Origin: Eledone cirrhosa
Taxonomy: Eukaryota
Length of the DNA stretch: 64,000 bases
Direction: 5' to 3'
Assembly (NCBI GenBank): GCA_964016885.1
Contig: OZ024740.1
Coordinates: 84,940,001-85,004,000, forward strand
Shown piece after piece: positions 4,142-63,852 of this stretch. The notes beneath the pieces were generated by a model, which saw only the letters and a program-made list of their open reading frames with translations, made no database searches and had not been told where the DNA came from. Made by a program: the position numbers and the translations under genes. How positions within the stretch are numbered: position 1 is the stretch's first letter; each line of letters starts with the position of its first letter.

Positions 4142-4239
<98 letters not shown>

Positions 4240-4240
<1 letters not shown>

Positions 4241-7200
4241 ATATGTTGAAAAGGTAACACACTAGAGAGAGATATACAGTGCGCTATCAATAAAACAGGG
4301 AAAAAGCCACCAGTGTATGGAATCTATAACCTATGAAAGGCAGACTATATACACGATAATTAAAAGTATAAATTAAAGCGTAAATAAATACCTCTATAAC
4401 TATATAACACACGTACAAATCCAAAGAGATCTGTTTCGCCAGTAAGTTGTTGACAGAAATGGAATAACCCCGGTTCCTCAGCGTGTATAAGGCTATACAT
4501 TTCAGACAACACTAAGAGAATTTAAAAGTGACTGTCCAGCTACACATGGGAGAGAGACGTCACAGCGTGTTTAAGGGCAGTGAACCAGTGGCCTCTGAGG
4601 GACGAGCTGCTAGAAAGGGCAGCCCAAAACCACTCAGAGAAGTGTGCTCAACCAAACAGAGGGATAGGAAAGACTGTTATAAGGAGCGAAATATCACGAT
4701 AAATTAACGGAGCCATAGAACCTCGCCATTCCCTGTAAATAATGTGCTCAAAGGAGAAGAAATCCTGAGCTCTTTAAAATACAATATGTTGAAAAGGTAA
4801 CACACTAGAGAGAGATATACAGTGCGCTATCAATAAAACAGGGAAAAAACCACCAGTGTATGGAATCTATAACCTATGAAGGCCCATTGTGACAATGGGC
4901 CTTCCGTCTTTGTTTCCGCATTTGTCTATGTGTTTCCGGAAAGACGAGGCCCTGGTTTTAGTGTGTTCCTTGATCCGGATGTGCAAAGGTCGAATTGTGC
5001 TACCTATGTAGTATTGGTTGCACCTGTCACATTCTATCTTATACACGACGTATGTGCGTAGGCAACAGTTAGCATGGCGTATCGGGCAGTCTCTGAGGGA
5101 ACATGCGTCAGTAGATTTTTCGGGTTTCCTGGAGAGGCATCTTCGCAGGGAGGGGCCCGAGTGGGCCAGGTGGATGTCGAGACCCTCCCTCCTTATAGCC
5201 TTGCAGATAGCGTTGGTGGTTTTCTCGCCCAGATGTGGCATTTTAAGGAAGCACTTGCCTTGGGTGCTTCTCTGTCTCTTGCGTCTGGTGTCTCCTATTC
5301 TGTCTGTGATCGAGGTAGGGTACCCGTTCGTCTCCAGCACCTCGAGGAATCGCTTGGTATGAGTGACACCACTCGCGGGATTGCTGCATCTGTTTTTGAT
5401 TCGCGCGATCTCGTTCGTGATGTATCCTCTTTTGGCACTGTTAGGGAGGGCGGACTTGTAGTGAACGAATAGGTCCCTGCAGGCTGCCTTTCTGTAGAAG
5501 TTGCAGTGGATCCCTCCTTGTTCCGTGATGTTGATTCGGAAGTCGAGGAGGGCAAGTGACCTGTCTTCGTTGGGGTGTTCAACACTGAAGTCAATGTTCT
5601 CGTCCGTGTTGTTGAACGTCTCATAGATTCTGTTCGCCGTGTCTTGGGAAGATGTGAGGATGAGGATATCGTCCACGTATCTTGAGAAAAAGGCTACGGC
5701 GTTGGGGTGGCAGGCGTTGAGTGCCTTGCGTTCGAGGTTGTCCATGTAGGAGATCGCTAGCACACCTGATAGGCTTGATCCCATGGGCAATCCCGAGGTT
5801 TATTGGTATATTTGGTCAAGGAATCCGAAGTAGGTGTTGTCGACGACGATGGATAGGAGTTGGTGGATGTCAGTGGTGGTGAGCCCGAAGCAGTGTAGGT
5901 CGGTGGATTGGACGCGTTCCATTAGTACATTGACGGCCGGGAGTGCCGGGACCGAGGTGTAGAGAGCGACTACATCAAGGCTGAAGGCATATCTGTTATT
6001 CCTTCTGGTGTCGGGATCCATTTGATGCAGGCACTTCAACACCTCCTCGGAGCTGTTAACGTGTCCCGGCAAGGTGTCTAAGATGGGTTTGAGTATTCTG
6101 GCTAGGAGCCATGAAATTTTGTAGAGTGGTCCCTCCACGCTCGATACGATGGGCCTGATTTTCAGGTCGGGTCCCTGTTTGTGTGTTTTCACGAGGTGGT
6201 AGAAGGCGGGTAGTCTGCTGTTCCTCGTGAGGAGGTTGTATCTCAGCTTCTTCGGGAGCTTCCGCCGGTCGCAGATGTTGGTCCAGGCGGAGTTGATGTG
6301 TTCTTCTATCTGCGCGGGAGTGATTCCCGTGACCTTGGAGTAGAGGTTGTCATCGTCAAGGTGTTGGAGGGCCAGGGTGTTGTAGGCCTCTCTGCTGATG
6401 ACGCAGAATTCTTTTCCCTTGTCGGAGGGGAGATAGATGAAGTTCTTCGATTTTAGGTTGGAGAGAGTGGTGAGTTGAGATTTGGTGAGGTTATGTGTTG
6501 TGCGTGTATGTGTGTTTGTGAAGTATATCCGAGATGTTTTAGCCTGATGAGTTTAGTGTCGAGTTCGTGGTTGGTGGGTGGGGGGTGGAGTGGGTTGTCG
6601 GGGTGGTAAGTGGGGAACTTGGGGTGGGTTGTGTCGGCGCTGTTATTATCTGTGGCGCTGTTGATAGCGGTCACCCATTTAAGTTGGTAAGCGGCTCGAC
6701 AAAAGTTGGCCTCGATGTTGAGTTTGAGTCTGTCGTCGAGACGCTGTGTGACGATGAACTTAGGTCCGAGGTGTAGGAGTTTCAGCTCGTCGCTCGTGAG
6801 AGTGCCGGTTAGGTGACCAGGTGCGTCGCATCGTTGAGGTATGGCTCGGTGTTGGTGGTTGCGGCGGTGGCGGTTGTTAAGTTGTTGTTTTCCACGTGGT
6901 TCTGGTCCGTCTGTTCGTTAGTGTCGATGTTCTCGTTGTGGCGTTTCGACAAGATCCACTCATATTTTCGCTTGAGCCGTTTTTTCTCGTATTGGACTCT
7001 GGAGTGGTAGCACTGGTCGATTGCTTTAGTGATTTTTAGGAGCAAGTTTCCGGGTGCTATTGGCAGTCGATGTGTCCGCTTATGGACGAGTAATTGGCGG
7101 TTGAGATGTCTCAGGATCTGTTTAATACACGTGCGATGTATGCGGTTAGTGGTGTTTTGGAAGGCTGGTGTATGTAGGCTTACTAGTAAGCGAATGTTCT

Positions 7201-7380
7201 TGATGGTGTTGGGGATGACATCGTTTTTTAGGCAGCGTTTCGGGAAAATAATTTGGCAGCCAGCGTTGGCCCATTTCTCCGACAGTCTAAACAGTTCCCT
7301 TACGGATGCAAACAATTCCTGGCTCAGGTGTAAGGATAAGAGAGTATTGAAGTTTGCTTGAAGCATTGTGGAACAATAAG
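4240..7380 (-). mobile_element. Penelope-like retroelement (RT plus C-terminal GIY-YIG), disrupted
   Basis: ORF fragments 6809-7441, 5800-6192 (IRPIVSS, FSLDVVALYTSVP) and 4867-5790 (GLPMGSSLSG, RYVDD, YVVYKIEC..C..YYIGST.R.L..RIKEH). A 98-bp direct repeat lies at 4240-4337 and 4783-4880. The element is flanked on both sides by (TA)n. Confidence 0.92.
4407..4488 (-). ncRNA. Type I hammerhead ribozyme with enlarged loop II, in the PLE 3' region
   Basis: Minus strand reads ATACACG-CTGAGGA-A-CCGG-(27-nt loop)-CTGG-C-GAAA-CAGATC-tctttg-GATTTG-TA-CGTGTGT. Helices I and III pair fully allowing G.U; cleavage triplet GUA. Confidence 0.75.
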
Positions 7381-7544
7381 TAAATATATATATATATATA
7401 TATACAAACACAGTGTCCCAAAAAATGTATACACACTTCAACAGCTAAGTAATCAAAGTGTGTATATATTTTGGAGGTGACACCGTGTGTATATATATAT
7501 ATATGTGTGTAACTAGTAAAACTGTAAAAACGCAGCGGTATATT

Positions 7545-7754
7545 CTAATTTGGCCCTTTTAAGGGACACCTATATTTTCATTTAAGTAACTCCACTTACA
7601 TCTATATGCTTTAATAAAAAAAAAATAAAAAACGCGTGAAAAAAAAAAAAATGTCATTTAAGTAACTCCACTTACGCGTGGTAGTAATACGGAAATAAAC
7701 GATGTTTTGCTTTCATCGGCTGCTTCGACTGACAGCTAATAGCGTTGTAGTGCC
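7545..7754. mobile_element. Solo truncated arm of the foldback element
   Basis: Ends in GCGTTGTAGTGCC, the same terminus as the 7906-9117 element; inverted relative to 7906-8110. Confidence 0.7.
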
Positions 7755-7905
7755 CACCAATCTAAACGAGTGATATTTTTTGAATTCTTCTCTCTCTTCG
7801 TATTTAGTATTTCTTGCTCTAAAATTCTACTTTAAAGTTCGTATCTTCTTTACAGACAGCTTTTAGCTGGTGATGGTTCGTGCTGAATCGAAGGTGTAAA
7901 AACAG

Positions 7906-9117
7906 GGCACTACAACGCTATTAGCTGTCAGTCGAAAGCAGCCGATGAAAGCAAAACATCGTTTATTTCCGTATTACTACCACGCGTAAGTGGAGTTACT
8001 TAAATGAAAATATCACGCGTTTTTTTAATTTATTTTTATTAAAGCATATCGATGTAAGTGGAGTTACTTAAATGAAAATATAGGTGGCCCGTAAAAGGGC
8101 CAAATTAGAAAACAAATTTAAGTTAATTAGAAAACAAGTCATAGTTATCAAATAAATTGGATTTAATCATTTATATTTTCATAGTCATGGTTATCAATGT
8201 AGAAAACAAGTCATTTTCACCAACAGTGGAATTACTGCTGACAGCTAATACCATGAACTATATTTTCATAGTCATGGTTATTAATGTAGAAAACAAGTCA
8301 TTTTCTCCAACAGTGGAGTTACTTCTGACAGCTAATACCATAAACTATATTTTTATAGTCATGGTTATTAATGTAAAAAACAAGTCATTTTCACCAACAG
8401 TGGAGTTAACTTAAATGAAAATATAGGTGGCCCTTAAAAGGGCCAAATTAGAAAACAAATTTATGGTTATCAAATTATTTTCACCAACCCTTTATGAAGA
8501 AATGTTTAGAAAACAATTTTTTTTCACCAACATTATTCAAAAGCATGGATACAGTCCACATGGAGACAAGAGACAGTCCCCATGAAGATTGATTGTATCT
8601 GCTGCAGTAGCGGTAGCGATGGAAAAATCGTGATGGTTAATTCCATTAACAATTTGGCCCTTTTAAGGGCCACCTATATTTTCATTTAAGTTAACTCCAC
8701 TGTTGGTGAAAATGACTTGTTTTCGACATTGATAACCATGACTATGAAAAGTTCATGGTATTAGCTGTCAGAGGTAATTCCACTGTTGGTGAAAATGACT
8801 TGTTTTCTACATTGATAACCATGACTATGAAAATATAAATGATTAAATCCAATTTATTTGATAACCATGACTTGTTTTCTAATTAACTTAAATTTGTTTT
8901 CTAATTTGGCCCTTTTAAGGGCCACCTATATTTTCATTTAAGTAACTCCACTTACATCGATAGGCTTTAATAAAAAAAATTAAAAAATAAAAAACCCGTG
9001 AAAACTCCACTTATGCGTGGTGGTAGTAATACGGAAATAAACGATGACGAATGACGTCACCTTCGCCTGCTTTCGTCGACTGCTTTCACGACTGACAGCT
9101 AATAGCGTTGTAGTGCC
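7906..9117. mobile_element. Non-autonomous foldback DNA transposon with ~460-550 bp inverted arms (possibly Merlin-like)
   Basis: Termini GGCACTACAACGC / GCGTTGTAGTGCC. Flanks AAAAACAG (7898-7905) and AAAAATAG (9118-9125) form a probable 8-bp TSD with one mismatch. Internal ~87-bp tandem repeats. The superfamily is inferred only from the GG termini and 8-bp TSD. Confidence 0.7.
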
Positions 9118-30799: not shown

Positions 30800-32100
30800 T
30801 AAAATACGAAGTGTGTTTTATAAATTTTGACATAACCAAGGAAAATATACCTTAACTGTTCAAGTTTTCCTTGGACAGTTAAGGGATAAGAGAAGAAAAG
30901 TCAGATATTTCAAATTATTAAGATGAGTATGCAAATGAGGTTTAGGTAAAAGGGCTGAAAAAAACGTTATCTTAGACGCTATGGAAAATTTAAATAATTA
31001 TGATAAGTTTTTGTATGCGTAGGAAAGAAGAGAAAGGAAGAAGAGCTAGCATTTACGTTCATTTGGGGGGAAAAGTGGAATATGATTCCAGAGTTTATTA
31101 TGACTTATAATATTGTATATATAATCAATTAGATTATATGGAGAATTGTGGTTGTAAGTATTTTTATCTTATTATATTACGATACGTTATATGTATATAA
31201 ATATCTATACAGATTAATAATTGCGTATGTATTAGTATTATAGAGATAGACATAATTTACAATTATTAGTTGTTTATATATCAAATATGAGTTACGAAGG
31301 AGTTGATTTTGTATTTTACTTAAAAAATAGGTGGTTCAAGTTGTGAGAGTAGAACAATTTGTGGATTCAAAAATTTAGTTCAACATTGAAAATGTTTTCA
31401 GAATATTGTTAATTTAGCGAAGCTATACAGATTATCAAACATAATATGTTTATGTTTGCACGATTGGGAAAGGAAAGATAACTCCAATTTTGTTTGTTAA
31501 CCGTTAAATTTGATGAGTGATTTACTCCAAAATATATAGAGAAAATTATATATTGTTTTGTGTGAGATCAATTATTTTAGTTGAAAGTTGTGTGAATTTT
31601 TGAATGACAAAAAGAAAGGAAAAACGTAATGTGCTTTTCGAAGATCTATCGTAGAGAGGATAATTTTTCAGAATGTCATTCAGATTATCAATCTACATCT
31701 AAAAAAAATGCGTTATACACACACTATCCAGTTTTTTAATTATATTTAGAAGTGATCAGGATACTAATTTCTTCATCCGCTGATGAGCTAGGACTTTGGT
31801 ATTCCTCTTCACAAATAATATTGCGAAACAGTACTATCAAAACTGTCCGGGTGATCGGTAGTTACCACAATTCTGGTTTGTATTTATTTTTCTTGATTTA
31901 TTCTTAAATTGAGTCTAGCAAACCCTATTGTCTGTAGTTAGTATTTTTTTCACTTTAGCGATTCTGGTCCATTACGATTTGAACACATATATGTATATGT
32001 CTGTGTTCGTTTTTCTTTTTTGTTCAGTTATACTATACGGCTCGTAAAAACCTCTTTCCTAGAGCTAATTTACTTTAATGAGACTATTTTGAGTTTCTAA
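30800..32100 (+). mobile_element. Highly decayed Penelope-like 3' end (tentative) carrying a hammerhead
   Basis: Frameshifted RVEQ.WIQKFSSTL at ~31347-31392 resembles a GIY-YIG C-terminus; the HHR lies downstream. Boundaries are approximate. Confidence 0.4.
31773..31854 (+). ncRNA. Type I hammerhead ribozyme with enlarged loop II
   Basis: TCATCCG-CTGATGA(31780-31786)-GC-(34-nt loop)-GC-GAAA(31825-31828)-CAGT-actatcaaa-ACTG-TC-CGGGTGA. Helix I is 7 bp; cleavage triplet GUC at 31845-31847. Confidence 0.78.
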
Positions 32101-32296
32101 TTCAATACATGCCTTTGATATATATATAATGTGGGCTCGACTCCCATGTACGTCAATACTCATCTTTTTTTATTATCATGTTCCCCACCACCACCCCACT
32201 CTCAAGAGCGTGAAATTAATAAATATTTGTTTGTACTGCCTCTCTGTTTTGTTCCCGTTCAATTTTTCATTATATATATATATATATATATACATA

Positions 32297-39851: not shown

Positions 39852-39904
39852 GAATGTCAGACAGCGCTGTTTCAAGATTTGTTAATCTTTCATCAGTGAC
39901 ACTC
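39852..39904 (-). ncRNA. Minimal type I hammerhead ribozyme
   Basis: Minus strand reads GAGTGTCA-CTGATGA-AAGATT-aaca-AATCTT-GAAA-CAGCGCTG-TC-TGACATTC. Helix I 8 bp, helix II 6 bp, perfectly palindromic helix III (ACAGCGCTGT), GUC triplet. Confidence 0.9.
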
Positions 39905-39929
39905 ACTCAGCATGTACTGGTGTGAAATA

Positions 39930-40787
39930 CGAGGTGTGTCAGAAAAGTTCCAGGACTGATGTCACAAAAGATTTATTTCAAACCCAAACTTCACACTAAA
40001 AGTTTTCTCCTTCAAAGTAATCCCCCTGGAGTATGTAACTGTAATCTTAGCTCTCTGCATCGATCAAACTTTTTTCTTCATAATTTTATATACATGTCCT
40101 CTGTTTCAGGTCGTCAAGCAATGAGCACAGAGCAACGAACAAACTTGAAAACTCCGTCAGAAGCACTGGGATTGCTGCAGCAAGTGTATAGAGATGAGAC
40201 GATGTCACGCTCACGTGTTTTTGAGTGGTGCAAGAGGTTTAAAGAAGAACGCGAGGACGTGGAAGATGACCCCAGGAGCGGAAGGCCCACAACAACCAGG
40301 ACTAAGGTCAACGTTGAGCGCGTCAGGCAGATGGGGCGTAGCGATCGTCGGCTGACTGTTCGACTGATGGCAATGGGCTGGGCATGAATCGGGACAGCAT
40401 CTGGAAAATACTCACTGAAGATTTGGACATGCGGAAAGTCTGCGCGAAGATGGTGCCAAAACTGCTGAACGATGACCAGAAGGGTCGACGCATGCAAGTG
40501 TGCCAGGACATCCTCGAGCGTCTTGAAACCGAACCAGACTTGCTAGGGACTGTCATGGATCTTCGAGTACGACCGGGAGGGGATCCGTTTTGAAGACGTG
40601 GATGACGGAACTGCGGAGGATCCCGGAAGAATCCTTCCAGGAGTGCATGCAAACGTGGCAGAAAAGGATGGAAAAGTGCATTAGACTCCAGGGAGATTAT
40701 TTTGAAGGAGAAAACTCTTAGTGTGAAGTTTGGGTTTGAAATAAATCTTTTGTGACATCAGTCCTGGAACTTTTCTGACCCACCTCG
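39930..40787 (+). mobile_element. Internally deleted mariner transposon
   Basis: TA TSD at 39928-39929 and 40788-40789; ~100-bp TIRs starting CGAGGTG; transposase remnants MSRSRVFEWCKRFKE.REDVEDDPRSGRP, KVCAKMVPKLL and QGDYFEG. Confidence 0.92.
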
Positions 40788-47530: not shown

Positions 47531-50500
47531 ATGGACCTCTCACAGTCACACCTTCCTCACAAACTAATACCTCACACCGACACCACCATTGTAAATTTTA
47601 CTACGTTTGCCAACACTAAAAATATAAGCAGTAGCAATAATTTAAATTTGTCTCATGCAGACATTCATTTCCCGCCATTTCCAATGACTGAAGGTGTTGA
47701 AGCCGCCACCCACCACCACCACCACAGCGACAACAGAAACAAAAGAAAAAAATAAATTATCTCGTGACATCGAAATGGATTCACCCAGAATGGACTCTTC
47801 CACACCGAACACCAATGACGCCACCACCACCACAACTGAAACTAAAAATAACAATAACAACAACAGCAACAACAACAATGAGAATAACATCGTGTCATTT
47901 GCGAAGGCAGCCAAAAAGTGCGAAACAATCCAGGTAACTCAGGAGGAATTAGATGAAGCCAAGAGAATGGTAAAGAAAGATGGGTACAGGGTCAGCCCCC
48001 TCCCCCAAATAAAATGGACCATCGGCGCCTATGCACTGTGTCTTATCGGACGATTAACATAAAATCGCGCCGAGTGGAACGGGCATCCGAGTCCCAAATC
48101 CCAAAAGCTTTGAGACATGTGTGGGCAAAAAAAACCCCACATCAGACGTGGGCAGAAATATGGAACCGTGGACGTGTTCTTTGGAACACCACAGGAGGCC
48201 AGAGAACACTCCATGGCCCCATTAAGAAGTGACGACTTCACACTCGTCCCAAACTATTGTGGCCAGAGACTCGTGAAGATCAGGGTGACCCATGTTCCAC
48301 CGGCCAGCGAAATTCCCTGGCTAATGGCTGCCGTTCTCGCCGGCATCGAGGCTAACACCAAGATAATCGAAAGAGCGAAAGAAAAGCAGGAGAACTGGGA
48401 TGGAGCTCCTGATCCAAGCGGACCAAAAAAGCATTGAGGAGATCCCAGAGGTAATAGACCTCACTGACGGCAGCCATCTCACCGTAATCGTCGAGGGTAG
48501 AAGGCCTAGGTGTGTCGTTTGTGGTGAAGGAACCCACCTAAGGGCTTTCTGCCCTCAGGCTAAAAGGTTGAGGCCACCTCTCTTACCCACCCCAGTGACT
48601 CAACCATCAACACCACCAGCAGCAGAAATGGCAGCAACAACAGAAGCAACTGGAACAGCAAAAACCCCAGCAACAGTAGCAAAACCAACACCACCACCAC
48701 CCAACGCGCCAGAACTAGCACCAGCGCCTACACCATCCACCACGCCACAACCAAAACCAACGCCTGTGGAGGATTTTCTACTCCCCGACCTATCGCAACT
48801 GGAAACAGATTGTGACAACGAGGAGTGGGAAACGGTATCAGGAAAAAAGAAAAAAAGAAAAAGAAGCCAAAAAAGAAAAAAATCCTCTTCCTTCCCTCTC
48901 CAAAAACAAAATACAGAGGGAAACAAATAAACTATCAAACAAAAAAGTTAGGACAGCTATGCCACCATCCACACCAGCCTCACCAACCCCATCACCACAA
49001 ACACCAACACCATCACCATCATTAATCCCAACACCACCATCACCTACACCACAAAAGTCACCAAAAAGCGAAACAGAAACAAACCCACAACAAACGCAAA
49101 CAAAACAAAACAACCAAAACGATACACACTACACAGCATTAAATTTGAACAACAAGCAATTTTTACACTACATCCAACACAACACCAGCATCACAGAAAA
49201 AGACTACAAAACACCCCAAAAGTTCACACCACCTCCACACATACAAATCACTCGCATCACACAGAAAACGTACACAACACTAAAACAAAAATTCCCCAAA
49301 GACATCGGAGACTTCCGACAAACACTCTCCAGGAGGATTTATAAAGACATCCTTCCGGAGGAGGCCACAAGCAGTGAAAAGGATGGAGAAACCATCCTTC
49401 CTCTACGAGAAGTAAGGTAAGTGGTCTTTCCCATCTTTTCCACTCCATTTCAACATGACCTCACTCAGAATAGGCAGCATAAATGCGCGTGGCTTGGGGT
49501 CGTCATGGAAGCAGGGCTACCTGCTCAACGACCTCAGGTCACTAAACATAGATGTAGTGGCCATCAGCGAGACCAGAATCTCCGAAGCACGGGCCTTCGC
49601 ATCGATCTTCGGCGGCTACGATGTGTACGCATCTCCCAGCCGTCCTGGATCGGGGGGGGGGGAGGAGTTGCTGTGATTTTTCGGAGAGGTTTGGATCTCG
49701 CCATACGGGCCATCTTGCTGAACCCAGAAGGTAAGTTGGTGGTGCTGGACGTGACCAGCGGAGACGGGCAAGCTTTCAGGCTAGTGGCCGTCTATGCCCC
49801 GACAGGAGCAGGGCGGCCTAATTTCTTCCGGCGTCTGGAGACCTTTCTTGGAACGTTCCGCTCGTTAGTGTTAGTGGGCGACTGGAATGGGATCTTAGAT
49901 GCACGCTGGGACTGTGTGGGATTAGCGAATAGGGGAGGAGGGTGCAAGAGCCTCACCAACCTGCTCAGGCGTTTTGAACTGTCTGACAGGTACCGATTCG
50001 ATTTCCCGAATGTGCCAATGTGGACTTGGACAAACCGCATAGGGTCATCCAGATAGAGTATTTTGTAAGGAAATAGATAGGTCTAGCATAGGCTGTCCAC
50101 AATTCAAGATAGTCAGTTACACGGACCACAAATTCGTGATCTGTGTGCTTGACTTAGATCGGCTTCATAGACGAGGAACCGGCTACTGGAAGCTAAACGC
50201 GTGCTTACCAGCGCACAAGGTCTACAGAGACCGGATTAGCAAACTAGTTAAGCGGGCGTTGACGGGGGCCATCGTCAACAACAAGTGGTGGTTTGCTCTG
50301 AAAAGAGCGATTAGAATAGAGTCCATTAGTTTTAGTAAGGCTTTAGCAATAGAGAAAAATAGAGCAGAGGGAGAACTAGTTAGAAAATTAGACGAGGCGC
50401 TTAGCAAAGGCATCGCGACCGACGTACTTGCGGCGAAATTGGCTCTTGACCAATTCTTCAATGCAAAGCACGAAGGCTGCGTCGTCAGAGCTAGGGCGCG

Positions 50501-52970
50501 TGTTCTCAGACACGAGGGGACGAAAGCCGTTCAATGGGCCCGAGTGACAGAGGCGCGTCGTGGCAACAAAGCCACAATCCCGGGTAAATGTGTGAAGCTT
50601 TTCAGCGACACTTCGCTCAGCTGTTCGAGGGCAGCGGCGGGCCGGATCGAGGGATGAACTTTAGTGTCTACCTCGACGGACTGCCGCGGCTCTAGGCCAC
50701 TGAGGCGGAGTGTTGCGAACAGCCGATAACAGCCGTTGAAGTACGGGAGGCAATGACTGGGTGCACAAGGGGTAAATCGCCTGGTTTGGATGGTCTGCCC
50801 TATGAACTTTACGTACAGATGCCAGATTTGTTCGGAGGCCTCTTGGCGGACGTCTACTGCAACTGGCAACAGAACGGGAGAATTCCCAGCTTTCTGAGCC
50901 GAGGAGCTGTGGCGCTGCTGAGAAAGGATCCGAACAAGGTGGATAACATAGATAATTTCAGGCCCATAACTCTTCTAAACACAGAGTTCAAGATTTTGGC
51001 GAAGGTGCTAGCAAAGAGGTTGGCGCTTGTCGTTGGTGGTCTGGTAGGAGAGGCGCAGACATGCGCCATTCCCGACAGATCCATCCACAACAACCTCCAC
51101 CTCATGCGATACATCGTAGAGAGGGTAGCTAGGGAACCTGGCACGAGTGGGTCCTTGATCAATTTAGATCATTCGAAAGCTTTCGATAGGGTCGACCATC
51201 GTTACCTAGTGGCAGTCCTGAGGGCGGCTAGCTTTGGGCCCGTCTTCAGAGGCTGGATCGCTGCCATCCACAGCAACATCTGCTCTGTGGTGAGAGTGAA
51301 CGGTCACCTTTCGGAACGGTCACATTACTGCACAAACTGGAGACGTTGAGGGGGATCCTGCGCAAACTAGGATGCGGAAGATCCGTTTCAGCATATGCGG
51401 ACGATGTCACCGCAGTGGTGTCGAACACCAAACACATCGAGGCGATCGGCACTACACTAAGAGAATACGAAGCGGTGACAGGAGCGATGATCAACCAGGA
51501 AAAGTCAGTGGGCCTGCAGCTCGGCACCTGGAGAGGCAGGTCCATGCCCTCCAACAGCGTCTTCGGGCGCTGGACGGACGGACCGGTTAAATTGGTAGGG
51601 GTCTGGTTCGGTCCGGACCTCCAGACGGACAAAAACTGGGACGAGGTGACGAGCAGGGTGGCTTCTCTCACCCAGAAATGGGCGGAGATGAAGCTATCCC
51701 TGAAAGGTCGAGCGGAGGTGGCTAACGCGTACATCGCGTCCGTCATCTACTACCGCCTGACCGTCGTACCTTGTCCTAAGCCCCGCCTGACTGCGCTGGA
51801 GCGTTTGCTCTTTCGCTTTTTGTGGAAGGGACGCGCTCCGATGGTCAGGCGGTCCATCTGCTGTCAACACCCGCTACGTGGAGGGCTGGGATGCCGTGGC
51901 TGATGATGCGCAAACACGCGCTCAGGCTACGACATCTCCACCCCTTCCTCGACGGTGATCAGGTGTGGTCGCCGTTTGCTAGACGCGTCTTTCCCCAGCT
52001 CGTCTCCTTGATGGAGCTGCAGTCCTGGGTCAAGCGAAGACCGAGAGGGAGCGCTTGGAGACTGGAATGTCTTCAGGCGCTCACAGCCCTCGACCAATAG
52101 AGGATTAGTGGAGGGGAAGAGCGACGACGTACTTGGGGAAACTCTAGGCGTCGATGAAAATTAACTAGCCAATCTCTTCGGAAGAACTTTCGGGCCGGGG
52201 CCTCTGGACAACTTCCAGAAATCCCTGGCCTGGCAGTGCTACCGAGGAGCTTTGCCAGTTCGGGATAAACTCTACAGGCATGGAGGTGCCGTCAGCCGGG
52301 CATGTCCGAGATGCGCGCAGGGCGACGAAACCGTCCTGCACGCACTCGTCCAGTGTCCGAGCATTGCTGACTTGTCGGTTTATGTCGAACACCTGCTGTC
52401 GTGTGTAGGACGGATCCAGCTATCAGCTGAGTCCATCGTGAGGATTGCGCCGCGCTCTTCCTTTAGCCGGGAAGGGCAGGCTGTTTTTATCTGTCTGGTG
52501 GCCATGGCGAAAGAGATAGTATGGTGGACACGTTTGAAAGGGCTGAAGACGAGCACTTACCTCTTCGGTGATGCCCTGATTAACTTTTGCAAATTGCATT
52601 TGAAAAAGAAAATTAGAGTAGAGAGGGAAGTGCTCTCTTCCCAGCATTTTGTTGAAAGATGGGTGAGAGAGGCAAGAATGGCCCGAGTGAATGGGCCTAT
52701 TCTGAGTATGTGTCTGTAAATTAAAGGTGGAAAACTGGGAGAGGGCACTTGCCCTGGTGGTCAGGGTCACTGTGGCTTTTTAATGGGCTTTCTCCACGAA
52801 TGTCCCTCGGAAGTCTCCCCCGTATTGGGGAATTTTTCATTGTTACTTTTTTGTTACATCCTCTGTTTTTTTTTTTACACGCAGAAATGCCCATTTGTAC
52901 CGTCCTGTATTGTCCTGTACTGACCTTTATGTCTACTTTATGTAAACCCTTGTAGTTAATAAAGAAAGCA
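47531..52970 (+). mobile_element. Near full-length Tx1/L1-group LINE, frameshifted
   Basis: ORF1 has a CCHC knuckle (CVVCGEGTHLRAFC) and a Pro/Thr-rich tract. ORF2 starts at 49455 with APE (GSINARGL, ISET, VYAP, LVGDWN, TDH), RT (KSPGLDGLPYE, NFRPITLLN, DHSKAFDRVDH, YADD) and a C-terminal CPRC..DETVLHALVQC. AATAAA at 52958-52963. The 5' boundary is uncertain. Confidence 0.92.
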
Positions 52971-53746: not shown

Positions 53747-53822
53747 TTTAGTGTATGTACACTCCATATTCTTCGGAGTTTCCGGCTTGTATTGGCCGAT
53801 AATACTTCTTGTTGTTTTAATT

Positions 53823-53860
53823 GCCCTGATGAGTCCTTAATAGGACGAAACATTGTCGGC
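53823..53860 (+). ncRNA. Minimal type I hammerhead ribozyme (PLE type)
   Basis: GCC-CTGATGA-GTCCT-taat-AGGAC-GAAA-CATTG-TC-GGC followed by AATAAA, within a ~165-bp island between (TA)n tracts. Confidence 0.88.
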
Positions 53861-53905
53861 TAATAAAGACTTTTGATGTATTGAAGGCTTCTTTGTTTTA
53901 CTTTC

Positions 53906-61657: not shown

Positions 61658-63852
61658 ATCATCATCATCATCATCAACGTTTAACGTCCGTGTTCCACGC
61701 TTGCATGGGTTTGGACGGGGGTAGTCCCACTTGAGGCAAGAGTGATTGTCTTGCTCGCATAGGACTGTCTGGCAGGTTTTCTACAGTTGGATGCCCTTCC
61801 TAACACCAACCACATTTACAGTGTGGGTCTGGGAGGTTTTTACCGTGTTGCCTACACGGCCACATTACAGCGTGGACTGTGTGTTTTTTTGTCGTGACAC
61901 CTACACGATCTCATTTGTTTCGGCCTCGAAGGCGCGGCACCAACATAACTTTACATAGAACGGGGTGGTGTGGATCGGGTGGGGGTGGGGGTGGTGGGAC
62001 GGGGTGTATTTTGTTAGAGATGCCTACTGGCTGGAGTAGGTTTTACTATATATTTAGGTAAGGCGGGTCTTCTCTGTTACTGAGTACCGCCAAAGGTCTC
62101 GGTCCAGTGACATTGTCTTGGAGAGGTGTAAGTGTGTGATGTCGGAGTTTATCAGCTCGTCCCAGGTTTTTCTAGGTCTGCCTATTCCGTGACTACCGTC
62201 TATCTTTATTGCCCTGCACTTTGTTATACAGCTATCGACTTTCATGCGCATCACGTGTCCATACCAACGTAGCCTTCTCTCGAGTAAACAACATCTGATC
62301 CCTCTTATCTCTAATTTTTTCCTTAGTTCGTTTATGCTTTGCCGTTCACGTATATTACTGTTACACATCCAGCGGAGCATGCAAGCTTCGTTCCTCTCTA
62401 GTCTGCGTATATCCTCTGCACACAATGCCCAGGTCTCACTGCCATGCAGCATTGCTGTTCGTATGCAGGCATCGTACAACCTGCCTTTCATTTTAGTGAG
62501 AACCCTTTAGCAGCTAATAGTGGTATAAGCTCTCTGAACTTTTTCCAACCAGTTCTGACTCTAGCTACAGTACTTTCAGAGCACCCTCCCCCACTGCTGA
62601 TTTTATCGCCCAGGTAACGGAAGCTGTCCACTATTTCTATAGAACCCTCTGCGCAATTGAAAGAGCTAGTAGTTTGTGGGCACTTGCTGCTACTTATTGC
62701 ACCAGAGCACCGGCCACATGTAAAATCTATGTTCTTAGTTAGCTTACCTGTGATCCCACTACATCTTTTATGCACCCATACTTTGCATTTAGGACATAAA
62801 ATGGAGTTTCTACCTACGCCTTTCCTACACACCGAGCACGACCATTTCCCAGAAGGGACCGCCGCCTTGTTTTCTTTCCTACAAACTAGCACTTTGGTCT
62901 TAGCCAGGTTAATTTTAAGTCCTTTTGACTCTAGGCCGTGCTTCCATGTTTGGAATTTCTTCTCTAGCTCGGCCATTGATTCCGCTATGAGTGTCAGGTC
63001 GTCTGCGTATAGGAGTTCCCATGGGCAGCCTGTCTTGAACTCCTCTGTTATAGCCTGAAGGGCAATAATAAATAGTAGTGGACTGAGAACAGAGCCCTGA
63101 TGGACGCCAACTTTTACGCTAAACTCTTCACTATATTCGTTGTTAATTCTAACCTTGCTGACTGTTTCTTTATACATGGCTTGTATAGCCCTCACAAGCC
63201 ATTCGTCAACGCCTAGTTTTCTAAGAGCCCACCAGATAATGGAGCGGGGGACTCTGTCGAAGGCTTTCTCCAAGTCGACAAAAGCTAAGTAGAGGGGTTT
63301 ACCTTTAGCTAGGTACTTCTCCTGTAGTTGTCGTACTATGAAAAGAGCGTCTGTGGTACTTTTGCCTGACACAAACCCGAACTGCATTTCATCTAGGTCA
63401 ATTCTCTCTCTGATTAGTTGCGCTATTACTCTTTCCGTGACCTTCATGACCTGGTCGATTAATTTAATGCCTCTATAGTTACTCCTATCTAGGGCGTCTC
63501 CTTTACCCTTATAACAGTTAACGATGATGCTGCTATGCCAGTCCTTCGGAACAACCCCATTCTGTACGACTTGGTTAACTATGCGGGTGACCATGGTGTG
63601 TCCCACCGTGCCAGATGCCTTCAGCATCTCAGCAACTATTTCCGAAGGCCCAGCCGCCTTACCAGTCTTCATATCCTTGATTGCCTTACTTATTATACTC
63701 CCCTCGACTAACACTGCTGGTCCCTCTATTGGGTCGATATGGGGAGACTGCCTTTCTCCCAATTATTCTCCTCATTTAGAAGCCTTTCATAGTGACACTT
63801 CCAAGCTACCTTCTTATCAGCGTCGGTGATGGCAAGTGTGCCATCGTCGTTT
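61657..63852 (-). mobile_element. 5'-truncated RTE LINE with nearly intact RT and embedded PHD-like finger
   Basis: ORF 62488..63762 (FVDLEKAFDRV, GVHQGSVLSPLLF, LLYADD) and 62054..62491 are separated by a single frameshift in an A-run. (CAT)n tail; inserted in a TA array. Confidence 0.95.

Follow-up and report, generated by a model that had tools for sequence, protein, structure and literature searches.

The hammerhead motif at positions 31773-31854 of the window, by which we mean the whole 64,000-nt stretch of Eledone cirrhosa DNA analysed here, lies in a Penelope-type repeat and has a loop II that is predicted to pair over 18 bp with the leader just upstream of helix I. It is likely (we put the probability at roughly 0.68) that this pseudoknot in a type I hammerhead replaces the loop-loop contact and enables self-cutting. 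The core, the three helices and the complementarity between leader and loop are present in the window copy and are kept across diverged families of the repeat. To judge from these sequences, the long leader-loop II form of the pseudoknotted type I hammerhead in a non-autonomous Penelope-type element is real, conserved and new, and its cutting is predicted. The parts of the motif, the repeat that carries it and a sister repeat are listed below in window coordinates.

31714-32128, plus strand: 5'-truncated single copy of a non-coding tandem-unit repeat of ca. 515 bp (family A), ending in (TA)n
31752-31767, plus strand: leader strand, distal part of the predicted pseudoknot, pairing with 31796-31812
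31769-31772, plus strand: leader strand, proximal part, pairing with 31790-31793 and abutting helix I
31773-31779, plus strand: 5' strand of helix I, pairing with 31848-31854 (7 bp, one of them U-G)
31780-31786, plus strand: core CUGAUGA (descriptor scan)
31787-31824, plus strand: helix II (31787-31788 with 31823-31824, 2 bp), closing the 34-nt loop 31789-31822 (structure scan)
31790-31793 and 31796-31812, plus strand: parts of loop II predicted to pair with the leader, followed by the return linker 31813-31822
31825-31847, plus strand: core GAAA (31825-31828), helix III (31828-31832 with 31842-31846) and GUC, with the predicted cut after 31847
31848-31854, plus strand: 3' strand of helix I
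32039-32066, plus strand: first GGCTC...GAGCT hairpin, just 5' of which many copies stop; putative start signal for reverse transcription
32100-32128, plus strand: 3' end of the window copy, the second common end point, located before the second hairpin of the full unit and joined to (TA)n
4216-4880, minus strand: sister family B, 1.2 units of a 543-bp repeat, with hammerhead and leader at ca. 4407-4516

A descriptor scan of both strands of the window located the type I hammerhead at 31773-31854 and upheld every coordinate of the intact core, 7-bp helix I, 5-bp helix III, GUC triplet, helix II of ca. 2 bp and 34-nt loop that a first-pass annotation had proposed. The core fits C3-U4-G5-A6-N7-G8-A9, G12-A13-A14-A15.1 and U16.1-H17; the three helices are there, with helix I open and helix II, in which G10.1-C11.1 is present, only 2 bp long. 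Helix III consists of 5 bp with a 9-nt loop, and these dimensions of helices II and III separate the motif from the minimal hammerheads of Penelope-like elements (Cervera 2014), which in the available text of PMC4209133 have a long helix II and an absent or short palindromic helix III. The motif at 4407, on the minus strand, has the same layout, but its helix II opens with an A-C mismatch. Rfam models gave no match at either motif, even at E values up to 1. Further hammerhead cores, of ordinary or minimal type, are found in the window at 53820-53864 and 34012 on the plus strand and at 39860-39896 and 30798 on the minus strand. Five matches resembling the Rfam Histone3 stem-loop, three of which reach the gathering score, lie on both strands of 7547-8947 within a repeat with large inverted parts, and 39926-40757, 48367-52716 and 62057-63762 contain what we take to be a mariner-like transposase fragment and LINE-like reverse transcriptase fragments.

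Both motifs sit in many-copy non-autonomous repeats of Penelope type. The family A unit measures 515-517 bp and has no ATG frame longer than 66 aa; units occur in tandem in several loci (L007, L008 and others), and unit lengths across the families are 515, 513, 543 and 495 bp. The family A copies listed from the animal's own 3.0-Gb genome, the best 40 of 1242 candidates, are 92-98% identical (for family B, the best 40 of 2398 candidates were scored), and most consist of 1-2.5 dispersed units with partial tandems, inverted 5'-truncated pieces and (TA)n flanks. The repeat thus combines the traits of a non-LTR retrozyme, namely a non-coding tandem unit within about 50-1000 bp with one type I hammerhead each, with those of a non-autonomous Penelope-like element, namely partial tandems, inverted 5'-truncated pieces, two alternative 3' ends (tail) and (TA)n targets. 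The window copy, which carries a single hammerhead, is probably a dead-end insertion.

The complementarity first noticed between 31752-31767 and the loop segment 31796-31812 was corroborated as 14 bp with a 2x2 internal loop and one bulge, at -13.1 kcal/mol. The 5 nt that had been placed between this strand and helix I are correct as coordinates but do not constitute a free linker, since 31769-31772 pairs with 31790-31793. According to the pairing energy calculation the full leader-loop II duplex comprises 18 bp at -18.3 kcal/mol and reaches helix I, and none of its bases in the window copy belongs to the core or to helices I-III. Equally good pairing was obtained with 3 of 1000 dinucleotide shuffles of the leader and with 50 of the 7526 34-nt tiles of the window, so that the window duplex alone is only moderately unusual; whole-motif folding gave z-scores of only -1.3 to -1.7 with a program that cannot draw pseudoknots. 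It is the conservation across families, rather than the single window motif, that provides strong evidence for the predicted duplex.

A pattern made of both core halves plus TATTCC gave 1,507 matches in the genome against 7 in the control and revealed further families, a leader-based pattern gave 1,333 against 13, and a pattern for the downstream hairpin, blind to the hammerhead, brought in additional families. The families were thus found by pattern searches and not with a genome-wide covariance model, and rarer ones, as well as an autonomous carrier, may be missed. From the clusters, 16 representatives were chosen by hand, one or two from each, and the duplex structure was taken from the window copy before the other families were scored. 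A leader-loop II duplex of 16-22 bp is predicted in 16/16, with loops of 30-38 nt and 0-5 bp of contiguous helix II, so that the pairing of upstream strand and loop is retained in homologs. A covariance model built from A-group copies alone recovered the 4407 motif (E value 2.3e-5) and, among the loci examined, further subfamilies. The first-pass proposal that such motifs form a conserved structural subclass, marked by a long pairing of leader and loop II, is supported by the presence of the duplex in all representatives, by the compensatory changes described below and by the recovery of the 4407 motif. The importance it gave to TATTCC and a nearby unpaired position is not: both window loops do contain TATTCC, but only 8 of the 16 representatives have it, several of them found by the search that demanded it, and it lies 3-5 bp closer to helix I in family B than in A. 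The conserved feature is the duplex, and not TATTCC or the position of the bulge.

In 12 of the 13 representatives tested, at most 14 of 1000 shuffles paired as well as the true strands, A7 being weak (41/1000). Mean pairing energies were -18.2 kcal/mol for cognate strands versus -10.0 for cross-group combinations (n=114), and A and D strands cross-pair, to -20.4 kcal/mol. In a MAFFT alignment of nine A-group sequences, the 20 pairs of the duplex are 86.7% paired, four of them have changed on both sides, and the score was reached by 1 of 500 shuffles, while slid registers gave 40-54% paired; the three hammerhead helices are 92.9% paired, with 5 of 14 pairs changed on both sides. Across groups A, C, D and G the six central duplex pairs are 79.5% paired, a value that no shuffle equalled (0/500), and slid registers overall fall to 23-54%. 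As the families share ancestry (A and C are 62% identical), these changes are not independent and the counts are not probabilities. The mis-registration of B, C and D by MAFFT lowers the pairing of the duplex to 69.8% on an unadjusted 16-row alignment, and RNAalifold predicted from that alignment only helix III and not the duplex. Among 12 further model matches examined, 2 had no parsable core; in 7 of the 10 parsable ones no more than 7 of 500 shuffles were as good, and in the other three the figures were 26, 182 (L245) and 262 (L229, whose core was mis-parsed). A7, L245 and L229 have no significant duplex. In A2 and A6 a helix II of 4-5 bp can compete with the proximal duplex. By eye, leader/loop II complementarity of 7-9 bp was also seen in other hammerhead families of the genome (L112:335, L105:8631, L090:3034).

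Pseudoknotted hammerheads were described by Perreault et al. (2011), the available parts of whose text (PMC3088659) report a stem II of 1-2 bp together with pairing of loop II or loop I to the flank, which holds stems I and II, and list members among all three types as well as the human C10 hammerhead (5 bp). The tested pseudoknots were needed for speed, and section 7 of the same source describes a stem II of a single base pair that relies on a 6-bp pseudoknot; making stem II longer slows cleavage in a tested pseudoknotted hammerhead. The motif studied here, with its predicted Watson-Crick pairing of loop II to the flank of stem I and the covariation in that pairing, would fall among these, as it shares with them a short stem II braced by loop-flank pairing. 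Compared by text only, the tested pseudoknots of that work (PMC3088659) have 5-6 bp, whereas 16-22 bp with internal loops are predicted here, in a 30-38-nt loop and within a high-copy animal retroelement. The PK hammerhead of Zhan et al. (2024; PDB 8YDC), as described in the accessible text of PMC11300833, likewise combines a vestigial helix II with pairing between the loop of that helix and an element that lies 5' of helix I. There, however, the partner of loop II is the loop of a separate hairpin (helix IV), with 6 bp formed and an A-rich triplex strand as the connection; the leader of the present motif is linear, contiguous with helix I and paired over 18 bp, and no helix IV is seen, which places it outside that class. 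By analogy with these systems, the long pairing would compensate for the vestigial helix II. A text search of the literature, for which figures, most subscription papers and some supplements were beyond reach, did not turn up any report of a 16-22-bp duplex between leader and loop II in hammerheads of animal retroelements, of the shared hairpin treated below or of a natural U4A core (further background on hammerheads and retrozymes is available in part in PMC7761336 and PMC6765202).

Other readings of the duplex have to be weighed against a role in self-cutting. That the complementarity is due to chance, or goes back to an ancient local inversion that every family has inherited, would be in keeping with the relatedness of the families and with the ease with which AT-rich strands pair, 50 of 7526 tiles being as good as the true leader; we nevertheless consider it very improbable, since both strands differ among A, B, C, E and G yet are complementary in register, and pairing drops when the registers are slid. 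A real duplex could instead act as a folding brake or end protector, in that the long hairpin keeps the catalytic strand in its loop and delays the cut until most transcripts are copied, or in that it shields the 3' end of the upstream product. The long leader-loop II hairpin is indeed the more stable structure by itself (-15.0 kcal/mol, against -8.9 kcal/mol for the three hammerhead helices), the minimum free energy fold of 31745-31860 includes the duplex without helix I, 816 A-group copies cross the cut site intact, and a Poseidon element is copied in vitro mainly from uncut RNA (available text of PMC11167929). The absence of helix I from that fold says little, however, as folding programs cannot draw pseudoknots; moreover, the duplex leaves the core and helix bases of the window copy untouched and in most families abuts helix I, like the activating pseudoknots (PMC3088659, section 7, as available), and we regard a brake or protector as unlikely.

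It can also be asked whether the fold is kept as a protein-binding or RNA-stabilising module while cutting is dispensable or lost. Across 13-16 representatives, at ca. 60% mean identity, the core bases are invariant except in family G, as expected if catalysis is selected. In family G (495-bp unit; 320 pattern matches against 4 in the control, for example L240:1214-1330, L251:1304-1423 and those in L546-L575), CAGA replaces CUGA (U4A) in 94 of the 100 matches listed. The change spans several subgroups, in which the duplex (median -17.4 kcal/mol, n=28), the helices and GUC are kept. A U4A replacement should harm the uridine turn. The U4 contact mentioned in section 8 of PMC3088659, in the part available, fits this expectation. 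That family G has spread with such a core means either that the scaffold rescues weak cores or that cutting is dispensable. Helix II begins with a mismatch in families B and E (A-C or U-C at 10.1-11.1), and helix III is interrupted and weak in families C/D, which mostly have GUU; these lesions too favour a non-catalytic module, as does the finding, in the available text of PMC11167929, that catalytic mutants had no reduced insertion in vitro. Against it, besides the invariant core bases, stand the 5' breaks of the A group. A search excluding intact junctions listed 47 rows, which sorted by eye comprise 8 breaks exactly at the cut, 15 rows (14 events) at ten positions after it, 1 ambiguous row, 10 internal deletions (2 of them ending at the cut) and 13 intact variants; breaks exactly at the cut thus make up 8 of 22 (p 0.0005-0.03, according to the number of positions counted as cut). 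In an unfiltered listing of the same group, whose copies are partly common to the 47 rows, 4 of ca. 17 breaks fall at the cut. No excess at the cut site was found in C/D (4/29), in B (1-2 of ca. 33, with a filter that hides cut starts joined to TA) or in the unfiltered loci (1 of 26). The pile-up is a hint of cleavage in cells, for the A group only, and we think it improbable that the fold serves solely as a non-catalytic module. A depth step near the cut in three contig sets of one sample, which holds many variant copies, was not counted as a sign of cleavage because the subfamilies share sequence after the cut and differ before it.

The 3' ends of the repeats point to their probable mobiliser. 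Of 46 mapped 3' ends of family A copies, a count that leaves out 27 alignments running to the end of the reference, 40 lie just before one of two GGCTC...GAGCT hairpins, which lie ca. 90 nt apart. The hairpin pattern gave 5,327 matches in the genome against 29 in the control, one of them on the inverted end of an ORF-bearing element. A Hydra-like ORF group, represented by 21 loci, has a short hammerhead or the hairpin in 11 of them and the hairpin in 7; both hairpins precede the ORF start in two loci, and of eight copies examined five end just before hairpin 1 and two before hairpin 2. Hydra-clade copies of this genome and the repeats have the same two hairpins and end points, a 3'-end signal common to the repeat and an autonomous family. 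The encoded protein bears the motifs CxCX5C, DKT, RWR and CxxC, which define the Hydra clade (PMC8557442, section 11, as available), and by eye resembles Hydra-1_Obim; the clade was assigned from these motifs and by eye. The two end points of family A match the two internal start sites that make the 'tail' of the Poseidon element in vitro (accessible text of PMC11167929). As far as the accounts of Hydra-clade elements by Craig et al. (2021) are available (PMC8557442), these elements share with the present repeats (TA)n targeting, partial tandems, inverted pieces and a hammerhead near the 3' end, but in the hammerheads listed stem II measures 3-7 bp and its loop 3-10 nt, and the present repeat lacks an ORF and has a 2-bp helix II in the window copy. 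The long-loop motif was not found in 21 longer and 29 shorter Hydra-like loci (the top matches of one protein search); where hammerheads were seen, they are of the ordinary short type. By this sample, the unit is not a derivative of the partner's pLTR together with its hammerhead, and the long form belongs to the parasites. These data suggest that Hydra-clade Penelope-like elements are the likely mobiliser of the repeats.

A dependence of animal non-LTR retrozymes on Penelope-like elements has been proposed (PMC7229834; 10.64898/2026.07.22.740005, both available in part). The metazoan retrozymes of these works (Cervera and de la Pena 2020; Li, Clavereau and Pollet 2026) and the present repeats are alike in that both are non-coding and come in tandem units a few hundred bp long, each with one type I hammerhead, but the latter, compared from DNA alone, are dispersed as 1-2.5 units with inversions and have a specific shared signal that leads to the Hydra clade; the accessible texts on metazoan retrozymes do not mention a pseudoknot. 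Other candidate partners and relatives were rejected. The family B unit lies directly behind a Penelope-like ORF (RT + GIY-YIG) at window 4870-7444, which is not its parent, since all the other copies of the ORF (29 of 29) depart from the window sequence at 4886, where a different 3' UTR follows. This neighbour (minus strand) is a near-complete element with frameshifts whose 3' end is replaced by the family B unit at 4880, and its family has many copies with 94-99% protein identity, among which L223 has an open frame of 923 aa. In a Neptune-like family with an ORF of 784 aa, neither the first kb of 3' flank at 30 loci nor two 10-kb loci contained a long-loop hammerhead. The 784-aa frame occurs in near-identical copies (L221, L225, L161-L190), and no hammerhead core was seen in L221 or L225. 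A partnership with Naiad was not supported, an 18-nt Naiad-end motif giving 4 one-mismatch matches against 1 in the control, and identity with the Naiad 'HHR_half_core' (Craig 2021) was discarded because two octopus Naiad ends have, by eye, GAAA before CUGAUGA (PMC8557442, available part). By eye, the 3' ends of Naiad_Obim and Naiad_Ovul look like a hammerhead with its strands in non-circular order (PMC8557442, supplement part 24, as available). Outside animal genomes, a pattern scan of at least 119 metagenome stretches gave helices I and III in 1 of 90 cores, a scan of 24 viral stretches gave 21 distinct matches, one of which combines a 5-bp helix I with a weak duplex, and the covariance model found nothing at E<0.3 in 100 loci (24 viral and 76 of the at least 119 metagenome stretches); we treat these matches as due to chance.

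Returning to the reading in which the pseudoknot enables self-cutting, leader and loop II would fold first, during transcription, as a long hairpin whose 17-nt apical loop holds the 5' strand of helix I, CUGAUGA and two helix II bases. The downstream strand could then dock into this apical loop and complete helix II (2 bp) and helix I (7 bp), an order that would need no threading and in which a short helix II would be favoured. Stacked on helix I, the duplex would keep stem II at the side of that helix; the return linker has 10 nt in the window copy and 6-8 nt in C and B, and by a rough estimate 10 nt spanning about two turns is feasible but taut. Read-through or tandem transcripts would be cut after GUC into unit-length RNAs, for which the A-group breaks offer a weak genomic hint, and these may become circular, like the RNAs of other animal retrozymes. 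The GGCTC...GAGCT hairpins may be recognised by an RT/GIY-YIG protein of a Hydra-clade Penelope-like element, which would start reverse transcription just 5' of them, and copies would be inserted into (TA)n, mostly from uncut or rejoined RNA. We hold only tentatively, and with some doubt, a further-reaching version in which the leader duplex, of two turns, forms first and templates the active site so firmly that even cores regarded as crippled (U4A in G, the 10.1-11.1 mismatches in B/E, the broken helix III in C/D) still cut, and the RNAs parasitise Hydra-clade elements through the shared hairpin that sets the start of reverse transcription.

As the long-loop form escapes standard descriptors and Rfam, animal genomes may contain many such ribozymes that have gone uncounted. 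The families make up a natural series in which the same scaffold bears different core lesions, suited to testing the rescue of a hammerhead core by a peripheral helix, and they bear as well on whether Penelope-type elements need ribozyme cutting. Moreover, the shared hairpin is a concrete, testable signal that would tie a retrozyme-like RNA to one autonomous clade.
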